Part shown: positions 19,061 to 21,531 of the stretch, piece after piece | How the letters are laid out: each line of letters begins with the position of its first letter | How positions within the stretch are numbered: position 1 is the stretch's first letter | Origin: a virus | Lineage: Duplodnaviria; Caudoviricetes | DNA: 26,068 nt | Strand: one strand, 5' to 3' | Virus record (IMG/VR): IMGVR_UViG_3300022922_000066 | Location: 1-26,068 of that record | Translations under genes and position numbers: made by a program | The notes under the pieces: generated by a model | What the model saw: only the letters and a program-made list of their open reading frames with translations | Told to the model about the DNA's origin: nothing | The model's database searches: none

Positions 19061-19071
19061 AATTTACTCCT

Positions 19072-19101
19072 AAAAAAGGGGTGGCTCAAAATGAACCACC
19101 C
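19072..19101 (-). terminator. Rho-independent terminator after the major capsid gene
   Basis: Minus-strand RNA GGGUGGUUCA-UUU-UGAGCCACCC forms a 10-bp stem with one U-G pair, followed by CUUUUUU. It starts 12 nt after the capsid stop. Confidence 0.9.
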
Positions 19102-19113
19102 ACAAAAGCATAC

Positions 19114-20259
19114 TTAGTATGCAACATCCAATCTAATAACACCAAAGTCTTCAACGCCACCATTGTAGTCGCTGTTGTACTTAGGCTTCTTAAGACCGAA
19201 GATTTTGCCAATAGAGATACCGTTTTGGTTCCCGTAGTCGAAGGTGTCTTCAACAATTTCAGGAAGTCCAATATCTGCCATAGCAAGAGCTTGTGCTCCA
19301 CAGAATAAAGCAGCAGAACCGTTGATGTCAGCATCAGCGCCCCACTTATATCCAGCAGAACCGGCATTTGCAGATGTTCCAGTAAGAGCATTAGCAGTGT
19401 TAAACACATGTCTGAACTCATGGACCATAATGCCGTCAACCATCAAGCTTGAAGAACCTGAGAACAAGCTGTTGCTTGGTCCTCTGACTCCAGCATTTCT
19501 GACGTTAGCCAAGAAATCTGAATCAAGTTTAAGGTCAGCCATTACTTGTGGAGATACAAAAAGGTGATATACCTCTTCTCCACCAGCACCTCTTACGCCT
19601 CTGATATAGTTATCTTTAGCATAAGCTTTTAGAGCAACAATACATTCATAAGTAATGGTATCGGCTGCTTCTACAGCAGTTACGTCACCAGCTACTAAGC
19701 CTGAAGTTGCATCCCATCTTCTGTGTCTATTAGAAGTTGGTGCAGTTACATCACTTCCAAACGCAAGGTCGTTAAGATTTTGTCCTGAAGTCAAGACAGG
19801 TCTTAATGCACCACTGTTTTTAAGTGTGTAGTTAATACCAGAAAGCGATAAAAACGCTAATTGGTCAATACGATCAGCCATTGCATATGCAAGTGCGTCT
19901 CGTGAGTGCTCACGGAAATTAACAACTGATTTTTGATCAGCTAATCTACCCGCAAGTCTATTAGCAAATCTCAATTGATCAAGTTGTACAACGATGTCGT
20001 AGGCTCTTAAAGTCTCTTCATTTCCTTCGAGGGTGTTGTCTCCAACAATACCGTCACCAGTCATATCGGCAAGAAGTGTTATAACAGCTCTTGCTCCTTT
20101 TTCTGATTGGGTAAGTTCAGATATTCTCTGAACCATAGCGTTAGGTCCGCTACCCGCAAATTGGTTAATGAAGGACATGTTCCTAGCAACACGCCAAAAA
20201 TCACGCGACCAGATAGTAAGCTGTTCACTGGTCAGTGATGAAAAGTTTGTGTTAGCCAT
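19114..20259 (-). CDS. Major capsid protein (N4-gp56/DUF4043-like); probable start 20259 (381 aa)
   Basis: GGAGG at 20268-20272 lies 8 nt before the ATG at 20259 (MANTNF). Motifs GDNTLEGNEE, DQLRFA, LFCGAQALAMA, DYGNQNGISIGKIFGLKK and DFGVI. Sits after the scaffold and before a terminator. Confidence 0.9.
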   Translation of the reverse strand: MANTNFSSLTSEQLTIWSRDFWRVARNMSFINQFAGSGPNAMVQRISELTQSEKGARAVITLLADMTGDGIVGDNTLEGNEETLRAYDIVVQLDQLRFANRLAGRLADQKSVVNFREHSRDALAYAMADRIDQLAFLSLSGINYTLKNSGALRPVLTSGQNLNDLAFGSDVTAPTSNRHRRWDATSGLVAGDVTAVEAADTITYECIVALKAYAKDNYIRGVRGAGGEEVYHLFVSPQVMADLKLDSDFLANVRNAGVRGPSNSLFSGSSSLMVDGIMVHEFRHVFNTANALTGTSANAGSAGYKWGADADINGSAALFCGAQALAMADIGLPEIVEDTFDYGNQNGISIGKIFGLKKPKYNSDYNGGVEDFGVIRLDVAY

Positions 20260-20299
20260 GATGGCATCCTCCAAATTTAAGATTAAAGTTAAACTAACC

Positions 20300-20452
20300 A
20301 GTCGCTTTTCTGGGCCGACTATTTACCCGTATACCCTTTATCGTTGGGAAACGTTTTCGTGTTTTTACGGGCACGACCCCTGCCAGATTTACGCCATGGC
20401 AGGCGAAAACGTTGTTTTAGCAGAACGACCTGCGTCAAATATCGTTTTGACG
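20300..20452 (-). ncRNA. Candidate structured cis-regulatory RNA (capsid 5' leader)
   Basis: Several inverted repeats in the only long intergenic gap: 20433-39/20446-52, 20420-23/20430-33, 20350-59/20404-13, 20379-85/20397-403, 20358-61/20372-75, 20334-36/20346-48 and 20300-04/20316-20. Loop complementarities suggest pseudoknots. Confidence 0.6.
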
Positions 20453-20478
20453 GACGAATTACTTATATGTTATACCAA

Positions 20479-21531
20479 CTATATACCAAAGTCACCACGC
20501 ATTCTTCGCAAAGTTTCTTCTGGAAGCGCACTAAACTCATCGTCAGATAACGTATTTAAATTTATTTTTTTATCACCTTTAGCAGATTCCCCTTTCATTG
20601 TAGGTGGTTGCGACTCAGCAGCTTGTAGTTTTTTATTAATATTGGCTACTTTTTGCTTCTCAACAACTTGCTCATCTGCTTTTGGGGCTTGTTTTTCTGG
20701 TATAGGATTTAATAATTCTGGTTTTTTTGCTGCTAAAGTGTAATTAGTAGCTTTTTCTAGGGCATCTGGGCCTGTAAAACCTTGTACCATAAATGCATCA
20801 CGCAAATCTAACACTTCTTGAGTCAAATCAGCATCAAAATTAGCACTGTTTTCATCTAAAACAGGATATTGGGCTTGTATTTCGTTTGCTTTTTGCTGTA
20901 AAGCGGTCATTTCTTGACTTTGTTGCACTGTTTGGCCCATTTGTTGTTGTACTTCAAACATAAATTGGGCTTTTTCAGCATTTCTGATCTCATTTCTAAG
21001 TTCTACAGCTTTTTCTGCTTCGCCATTTAATACTAATTCCTGATATTCAGCTTCTTTAGTTGCAAAATCATACTCTGGGAGTTCTTTTGCGGCCTCTTGT
21101 TTTGCTTGGGTTGCCTCATCTAGTTGTTTTTGTAGTGCTTTTTGTTTTGCAAGCACTTCATCTAACCTAGATTTTGGCACCATAGGCGCTTTTGGTTGTT
21201 CTATTTCTTGGGAAACGTTTTCATCGCTTCCTTCAATTGGTTGAATATCTGGTTGTGCATCTGCTTCGCTGTTTTCATCCATTCCTTCTTCGCTAACAGC
21301 TTCTGGCTCTGCAGGTGCTTCTTCTTCCTCTGATGTTTCAGGTTCTTTTTCAGCAACTTCTTCTTCTGCAGAAGCGTCAGTTTCTTCCGTGACTTCTTCA
21401 TTATCAGATTCCTCTTCTTCTACTGTTTCAAAATTAAGGTCCACTTCAAACTTAGTGTCCTCCTGTTTAATGGGCTCACCTCCCGGCATAGCGTCCATAA
21501 TCATTTCATTGGTTTCTTCTTTTTTAGCCAT
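20479..21531 (-). CDS. Capsid scaffolding protein (350 aa)
   Basis: GGAGG RBS. Very acidic disordered N-terminus, MVPKSRLDEV followed by a coiled coil, and a short C-terminal helix-loop-helix (LSDDEFSALPEETLRRMRGD). Located between portal and capsid. Confidence 0.8.
   Translation of the reverse strand: MAKKEETNEMIMDAMPGGEPIKQEDTKFEVDLNFETVEEEESDNEEVTEETDASAEEEVAEKEPETSEEEEAPAEPEAVSEEGMDENSEADAQPDIQPIEGSDENVSQEIEQPKAPMVPKSRLDEVLAKQKALQKQLDEATQAKQEAAKELPEYDFATKEAEYQELVLNGEAEKAVELRNEIRNAEKAQFMFEVQQQMGQTVQQSQEMTALQQKANEIQAQYPVLDENSANFDADLTQEVLDLRDAFMVQGFTGPDALEKATNYTLAAKKPELLNPIPEKQAPKADEQVVEKQKVANINKKLQAAESQPPTMKGESAKGDKKINLNTLSDDEFSALPEETLRRMRGDFGI

Follow-up and report, generated by a model that had tools for sequence, protein, structure and literature searches.

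A predicted array of six H-type pseudoknots in the leader of a tailed-phage capsid gene

The scaffold-capsid gap and its homologues

The window analysed here is the whole of the 26,068-nt stretch IMGVR_UViG_3300022922_000066, which carries a virion-gene cluster of a tailed phage with every gene on the minus strand. On that strand the order is terminase, P22-like portal, a 350-aa acidic ORF, and the major capsid gene. The acidic ORF (20479..21531), between portal and capsid, encodes the probable scaffolding protein, as judged from its position. Profile searches of PHROG, Pfam, and NCBIfam gave no match for its product, which aligns weakly (E 0.2) with the syntenic protein of phage KPP25. The capsid gene (19114..20259) encodes 381 aa, and its product matches phrog_334 (E 3e-80), PF13252 (E 1e-42), and TIGR04387 (above cut-off). 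Its nearest cultured relatives are the capsid proteins of Kochitakasuvirus KPP25 and phiR18, both with 53% identity. The gap between the scaffold-position gene and the capsid gene is 219 nt long, and the original prediction rightly singled it out among short or overlapping junctions, as the other 19 junctions of the cluster range from -62 to +53 nt. It is not almost fully made of stems, as was also claimed, and consists of ~18 nt of predicted promoter, a 158-nt array of helices, and a 40-nt AU-rich tail with the ribosome-binding site.

Homologues were collected by capsid scans, pattern scans, and from four annotated records, yielding 439 loci, with 414 entries having enough upstream DNA and 282 of them distinct. 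Leaders of capsid genes with at least 70% protein identity number 160. Filtering to below 92% leader identity left 87 (mean pairwise identity 61%), and removal of L209, which is without the 3' modules, gave the 86 non-redundant sequences of alignment A1. A 28-letter pattern from the 3' half of the leader occurs at 120 loci among the matches listed. Of these, 114 are followed after 53–67 nt by a capsid start in the same orientation, and six run off the end of the locus. Such a fixed position speaks against an independent ncRNA, which the original prediction had allowed for. A compact 158-nt fold released from the message would survive as a decay intermediate and could take a structural or packaging role, but we consider a stand-alone phage RNA of this kind very unlikely: it sits directly upstream of the capsid start in those 114 listed matches, our terminator scan found none between array and gene, and no loop-loop complementarity between modules is conserved among the 86 homologues.

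A blastn search with the gap against cultured phages returned 3 chance matches only, each of ~33 nt. The region is contained in 14 RNA runs (12 salt-marsh, 2 freshwater) as assembled contigs, from which strand, ends, and level are not readable. Contigs of four of these runs were compared; in one, a deep contig reaches 20904 with shallow contigs upstream, and in the others the breaks fall elsewhere.

The predicted pseudoknot array

Comparison of the homologues indicates that the gap very probably holds a real, conserved structured RNA made of six short, back-to-back H-type pseudoknots on the minus strand, spanning 20457-20300 and referred to as PK0 to PK5. The compact, pseudoknotted, and conserved capsid leader that had been proposed is thus borne out, with six local pseudoknots in place of the fold drawn for it. 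The modules are 20–29 nt long, each with a CG/CG core, stems of 3–6 bp, and a third loop that is short and A-rich. Support is good for four of the six; of the other two, PK4 has an invariant stem 1 and PK1 a weak stem 2.

Covariation was assessed over 13,203 column pairs of the 160 sequences by an APC-corrected G-test (our own script, not R-scape) with tree-simulated nulls of 40 alignments each. Eleven column pairs have E <= 0.1. Nine of them are 95–100% standard pairs, and the other two are a misaligned PK1 register and a non-standard pair. Crossing pairs are among the eleven, 20454-20445 over 20449-20436 and 20403-20394 over 20400-20382. The six-pseudoknot model, comprising 46 pairs, was then counted on A1, an alignment of 86 sequences unfitted to any structure. 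In total, 91.9% of cells are paired, and double changes occur in 35 of the 46 pairs and in 567 cells. None of 500 shuffles did as well, and the model slid along the alignment is only 33–40% paired. Compensatory and breaking events were counted in one parsimony reconstruction on the capsid-protein tree of the 86 sequences, anchored on CG dinucleotides, so that CG:CG pairing is partly built in; the A1 pairing count is free of this anchoring and agrees with it. On 36 core pairs, G-U combinations outnumber A-C ones (93 versus 11), which indicates that the folded strand is the coding strand.

The modules were inspected individually, with events given below as compensatory/breaking. In PK0 (20434..20457), stem 1 (20457-54/20445-42) is 92.4% paired with 10/7 events and stem 2 (20451-46/20439-34) is 96.3% paired with 82/24; both crossing stems are among the top covarying pairs of the unbiased screen. 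Stem 1 of PK1 (20410..20433; stem 1, 20433-30/20423-20) has 4–6 bp in 81/86 leaders when counted per sequence and is 54–67% paired at fixed registers. The weak stem 2 (20427-25/20412-10) often has 2 CG pairs only; its CG core shows a single double change (L092), its third pair holds in 52/86, and its events are 7/17. Both stems of PK2 (20382..20405; 20405-02/20395-92 and 20400-397/20385-82) covary at E <= 0.05, being 97.7% and 82.4% paired with 14/5 and 39/20 events, respectively. PK3 (20357..20381) covaries in stem 1 (20380-78/20371-69, E 0.05) and reaches only E 2–3 in stem 2 (20376-73/20360-57); the core pairs of the two stems have 18/7 and 9/12 events. PK4 (20334..20353) has the same layout as PK0. 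Its stem 1 (20353-51/20344-42) is paired in 86/86 with zero compensatory change, an invariance that makes covariation uninformative, and its stem 2 (20348-46/20336-34) has 19/5 events. Beside stem 2, positions 20345 and 20337 form a strongly covarying non-standard pair (A-A in 70, C-G in 54, and U-U in 21 of the 160 sequences). The stems of PK5 (20300..20328; 20328-26/20314-12 and 20320-16/20304-300) are 98.1% and 96.2% paired with 9/4 and 13/12 events; in the unbiased screen they come next in rank, together with stem 2 of PK3, and individually fall below significance (E 0.8–13). Hence, two crossing stems each with compensatory change are found in PK0, PK2, PK3, and PK5. A conserved CsrA site in PK5 was considered and rejected, as ACGGA is changed to ACGGG in 59/160 sequences including this phage.

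PK0 and PK1 abut with zero linker in 66/86 leaders, and PK2 and PK3 in 82/86. In the model, each of these two couples is predicted to stack coaxially, which would give runs of ~17 and ~15 pairs, respectively. Several unpaired A and U residues are invariant across the 160-sequence set.

The earlier fold was evaluated in the same way. All complementary stretches that it named exist in the sequence at the coordinates assigned to them, and it partly coincides with the local pseudoknots. Evolution has kept GUCAAA/UUUGAC, GCAG/CUGC, CGUG/CACG, CCC/GGG, and AGUCG/CGACU, and of the CCUGCCA helix the inner GCCA/UGGC. The proposed three-way junction fails, its closing helix AACGUUUU/AAAACGUU having 8 compensatory versus 79 breaking events. 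So do the long-range pseudoknots, with 6 versus 42 for CCCGUA/UACGGG and, for GUCGUU/AACGAU, 3 versus 49 (20345-40) or 3 versus 46 (20446-41). These junction and long-range strands look complementary mainly because both sides hold invariant CG. On A1 that fold is 80.2% paired versus 91.9% for six pseudoknots. Its support comes from the helices common to both models, while the helices unique to it are 66–85% paired with few double changes.

Folding energy gives a different view. The nested folding energy of the gap has a z of -1.46, with 19 of 200 shuffles as good, and this value, barely better than chance, counts against a nested fold. A weak z is expected if the six-pseudoknot model holds, because half of its helices are pseudoknotted. 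RNAalifold recovered at most one stem per module. It also proposed an extra 3-bp CG helix, 20353-51/20330-28, which is invariant without any double change and was not retained. Rival nested helices can form in this phage's own sequence, and here the RNA may adopt an alternative fold.

A module descriptor, written after the alignment had been seen, finds a chain of six in the gap, compared with at most two in 200 dinucleotide shuffles and one on the antisense strand; no other chain of three or more occurs on either strand of the 26 kb. Chains of at least three are found in 55 of 75 clustered close homologues, and in 0/75 antisense and 0/75 shuffled sequences. Among 96 distant leaders (38–69% capsid identity), chains of at least two occur in 27, versus 10 antisense and 2 shuffled, and the other 69 have a descriptor chain of 0 or 1 only. 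Removal of L339, whose capsid gene is interrupted, left 95 distant leaders, in which one module type has 98 occurrences versus 9.65 in shuffles. A pair not required by the search is Watson-Crick in 58/98 of these modules versus 51/193. In 50 motif-filtered leaders resembling that of Acidovorax phage AP1, the two top covarying pairs are the predicted crossing-stem pairs, paired in 50/50 and 49/50. In L339 itself, the capsid gene appears interrupted near its start, upstream of position 1501, by a sequence that we take to resemble the 3' end of a group I intron.

For the cultured relatives, the descriptor finds three modules in AP1 and one each in Aeromonas phiA008 and Paracoccus KLEP18-1, and one module in a Pasteurella prophage. 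In the Pseudomonas phage KPP25 it matches once, at the terminator hairpin, and a module there is seen by eye only. Module number thus varies from one to six across phages, and stem sequence is variable. The cultured relatives with modules infect Proteobacteria. Burkholderia phage CSP3 and Klebsiella phage LASTA have no pseudoknot chain by the descriptor. In these two distant relatives (26–28% capsid identity), the capsid gene is immediately preceded by a CsrA-like gene (L440:167-361 and L442:242-451, respectively). No leader was found in five Negativicutes-bin loci and one Endomicrobia-bin locus with 28–33% capsid identity.

Rfam 15 gave no match at the gathering threshold in the 26,068-nt window or in 20 homologous loci, in agreement with the earlier remark that the RNA is not recognisable as a known riboswitch or ribozyme. 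The best of six matches at E <= 10 is TMV_UPD-PK1 at PK3 (20.7 bits versus a gathering threshold of 33, E 0.17). The TMV upstream pseudoknot domain (RF01114; 10.1101/2025.10.12.681957) is the closest in shape, as it also stacks small pseudoknots in series. As described there, however, it lies in the 3' UTR of a plant RNA virus and has three pseudoknots plus a tRNA-like domain, whereas six are predicted here in the 5' leader of a dsDNA phage gene. A capsid leader is not a tobamovirus 3' UTR beside a tRNA-like domain, and the match reflects a similar shape rather than family membership.

The type III antitoxins ToxI, antiQ, and CptI and a phage pseudo-ToxI likewise consist of small H-type pseudoknots in tandem, with A-rich loops (PMC5086642). 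They are near-identical repeats followed by a terminator and then a toxin gene; here the modules are unlike each other, our scan found no terminator on this strand of the leader, and the capsid gene comes next, so the array does not qualify as such an antitoxin. It could still act as a decoy, with ToxI-like pseudoknots on the most abundant late message titrating type III toxins as the pseudo-ToxI of phage TE does. The antitoxins consist of tandem H-type pseudoknots of 34–36 nt with A-rich cleavage sites, and there is a precedent for a phage mimic (PMC5086642); the modules here have 20–29 nt and A-rich loops. We regard this as highly improbable, since the modules are not sequence repeats and have no Rfam match, the same source reports an absence of cross-talk between different toxin-antitoxin pairs, and keeping order and position fixed in many phages suggests a core function rather than an arms race.

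Predicted promoter, tail, and ribosome-binding site

A conserved sigma70-type promoter is predicted directly upstream of the array on the minus strand. It consists of the -35 hexamer GTGACT (20490..20495), the commonest -35 among homologues (21/83), and the -10 hexamer TAACAT (20467..20472), with a predicted start near 20460. A TAnnnT box is present in 83/86 homologues. In combination with an nTG hexamer 16–18 nt upstream, it occurs at a near-fixed distance before PK0 in 71/86, versus a mean of 10.0 and a maximum of 20 in 200 shuffles. A consensus promoter scan called 0 sites, this promoter scoring 8/12. In a sub-clade with other DNA before the leader, the -35 hexamers are of TTG type. With +1 assumed 7 nt after the -10 box, 77/83 leaders have at most five unpaired 5' nucleotides, and a promoter just upstream of PK0 would make the array the very first part of the capsid mRNA. 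Processing of a scaffold-capsid message, another role suggested originally, is not required for a leader that sits behind its own predicted promoter.

The codons for the conserved C-terminal R-G-D-F of the scaffold-like gene double as the -35 element (20495-20490), so that coding and promoter function constrain the same nucleotides. Where the promoter lies outside the scaffold gene, as in one sub-clade (L205, L238, L253, L257, L266, L267, L285, L294, and others), the spacer and -10 box are covered by an inverted repeat, typically of the form TATTAG-N5-CTAATA, located 5–35 nt upstream of the first pseudoknot. Repeats of at least 5 bp occur in 21/36, versus a shuffled mean of 7.1 and maximum of 13, and the element looks like an operator for a dimeric repressor acting on the capsid promoter. 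Inspection by eye shows a terminator-like hairpin behind the scaffold-position gene in KPP25 (L201:2292-2473) and phiA008 (L202:2303-2500), with a TTGCAA-N17-TAnnnT promoter that overlaps or follows it; in these phages the capsid gene therefore seems dependent on that promoter. In L070, an extra small lysine-rich ORF lies between scaffold and leader, ~350 nt after the scaffold stop, with promoter and array remaining attached to the capsid gene.

An intrinsic-terminator-like hairpin with a U tract follows the capsid gene (19070..19101, minus strand; 10 pairs, 6 G-C). The window has 19 terminator-like sites versus 14.6 in shuffles, hence no overall excess. A separate terminator scan called none inside the leader on the minus strand. 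An element of this kind after the capsid gene was counted, without a shuffle control, in 110/244 homologues. An array directly behind a promoter, heading a long same-strand cluster with a terminator-like site after its first gene, could as nascent RNA modify RNA polymerase for read-through past that terminator into ~19 kb of tail genes. Such antitermination is known from the put RNA of HK022, which has two hairpins of conserved sequence. We find it very unlikely here: the array is variable where put has conserved-sequence hairpins, Rfam gave no match, and by our test 134/244 homologues, several with the full array, do not have the terminator-like element.

Between PK5 and the capsid gene lies an AU-rich tail (20260..20299, minus strand) with the GGAGG ribosome-binding site (20272-20268). 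The tail has 27–63 nt and a median of 70% AU in the 86 homologues, is poorly conserved, and includes an extra hairpin in one sub-clade. Its stretch 20295-20283, which is not conserved in homologues, may resemble the epsilon enhancer of T7 gene 10. Predictions that keep the array folded leave the ribosome-binding site mostly paired in 60/86 homologues, and in prediction it is the least accessible of 10 sites compared in the window. Holding the array folded hardly changes predicted site accessibility (median 0.30 versus 0.35), so that the idea of an array keeping the site open is unsupported by these predictions. A small hairpin GCCA...UGGC at 20266-20254 and in homologues has the start codon in or beside its loop, and GCC or GCT stands just before the AUG in 43/86 homologues; it is a possible weak operator.

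A CUCC strand in PK5 is present in 58/86 homologues, and nested folding pairs the ribosome-binding site with PK5 in 22/86. These counts would suit a switch pairing the CUCC strand with the GGAG site, and several riboswitches are H-type pseudoknots. Nevertheless, the strand is absent in 28/86 including this phage (GCCC), and its presence can be explained by PK5's own pairing, as it covaries with its PK5 partner in nine compensatory events. A leader that has no terminator inside it on the minus strand and no Rfam match is extremely unlikely to be a riboswitch or such a switch. The same holds for a self-cleaving ribozyme, as HDV-like ribozymes have a nested double-pseudoknot topology, which pseudoknots arranged independently in series do not produce.

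More weight is due to a translational leader in which the pseudoknots are protein landing sites acting on the AU-rich tail and ribosome-binding site, with either free capsid or scaffold subunits (feedback repression of the kind seen on T4 gene 32 mRNA) or host S1/30S (enhancer) as partners, a possibility that we find doubtful but worth weighing. The modules recur with an invariant CG core and adenines and could each serve as a binding site. Predictions give the ribosome-binding site weak pairing, and the CsrA-like gene before the capsid gene in CSP3 and LASTA hints at translational control of the capsid gene in the wider family. This capsid family, however, is not known to bind RNA. Module number varies from one to six, the tail is poorly conserved with its extra hairpin in one sub-clade, and holding the array folded barely alters accessibility, all of which argue against such a leader. 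S1 has been described to bind and unfold an H-type pseudoknot (PMC7038950), and the layout of pseudoknot, AU-rich stretch, and ribosome-binding site in a phage mRNA leader is that of the gene 32 operator of T4, T2, and RB69 (PMC3014915). That operator differs in having a single pseudoknot, bound by the ssDNA-binding protein that its own gene encodes. The six pseudoknots predicted here precede a capsid gene and have no known binder; the pseudoknot and AU-rich stretch are in place, while the downstream gene is not one for an ssDNA-binding protein.

A possible barrier to RNase E

The best explanation, in our judgement evenly poised between right and wrong, is that the array would block 5'-to-3' scanning by host RNase E, stabilising the capsid mRNA and raising capsid output. 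The original prediction had likewise put stabilisation or translational control forward as a likely role, which agrees with the readings favoured here. RNase E scans from a monophosphorylated 5' end and bypasses orthogonal stem-loops, and it is impeded by coaxial pairing, e.g. of an H-type pseudoknot, in proportion to pair number; pseudoknots of 8, 11, and 15 coaxial pairs were compared, and protection plateaued above 50 A (PMC9943677). The use of pseudoknots rather than hairpins would follow from this difference. If the capsid mRNA starts from its own promoter near 20460, as is likely, and the six pseudoknots fold in the cell at its very 5' end, they would hinder a scanning RNase E of the host, and the message would last longer and yield more capsid protein. 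The predicted stacked runs of ~17 and ~15 pairs are of the lengths at which scanning was hindered most in E. coli reporters (PMC9943677), and demand for the product is illustrated by the related phage A1002 with 535 capsid copies (PMC13730344). Abutting pseudoknots at the 5' end of the highest-demand message fit what the scanning model predicts for a stabiliser, namely coaxial pairs close to the 5' end and ahead of the coding region, here in a predicted structure behind a predicted start. Variable stem sequence and variable module number fit a barrier based on shape. Absence of the leader from the six Negativicutes- and Endomicrobia-bin loci would fit the link to RNase E, but the sample is small and the bin hosts are unreliable, and we give it no weight.

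Like the array, the known obstacles are H-type pseudoknots placed in a 5' UTR before the coding region, with 8–15 coaxial pairs, but those presented are single engineered inserts or a ligand-gated aptamer (PMC9943677). The model here describes up to six in a row at the 5' end of a phage mRNA, occurring naturally and, it seems, constitutively. One or two pseudoknots would already give much of the protection reported in that source, which counts against a pure stabiliser. That there are six modules, with several A and U residues unpaired yet invariant, may be a sign of a binding partner. It is conceivable, though unlikely as a whole, that the array is a modular pseudoknot armour of one to six units with two jobs, blocking RNase E on the capsid message and serving as a repeated docking platform for a protein. 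That protein would be either the unassembled capsid subunit, giving feedback coupled to assembly, or a host defence ribonuclease similar to the type III toxins. In that form it would be family-wide in phages of alpha-, beta-, and gammaproteobacteria, with the abundant late mRNA serving as its own counter-defence. A riboswitch aptamer, too, reportedly acts as a scanning obstacle for RNase E.

Serial pseudoknots are already known from a plant virus 3' UTR and from type III antitoxins, and a single one from the T4 gene 32 leader. In the literature searched, with most subscription papers outside its coverage, no account was found of a phage capsid mRNA that begins with a pseudoknot array. One published candidate to compare is DNAVirus_3698, an 85-nt element from IMG/VR with 180 sequences, mostly marine and freshwater, located upstream of capsid_maj_N4 genes in 37 cases (PMC10690425, Fremin et al. 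2023); the capsid here matches TIGR04387. The element has at most about half the array length, two covarying bases are reported, and its rows give no function. Compared by description only, not by sequence, it may be part of the array RNA.

The array exemplifies a class of RNA that nested-folding screens miss, as its z of -1.46 illustrates. If the stabiliser reading is true, it would explain how capsid output is raised over that of scaffold using the host polymerase, and would provide a compact, portable stabiliser for bacterial expression. It would also offer a dedicated natural system for testing the RNase E scanning model, in which module number runs from one to six and some carriers are in culture.
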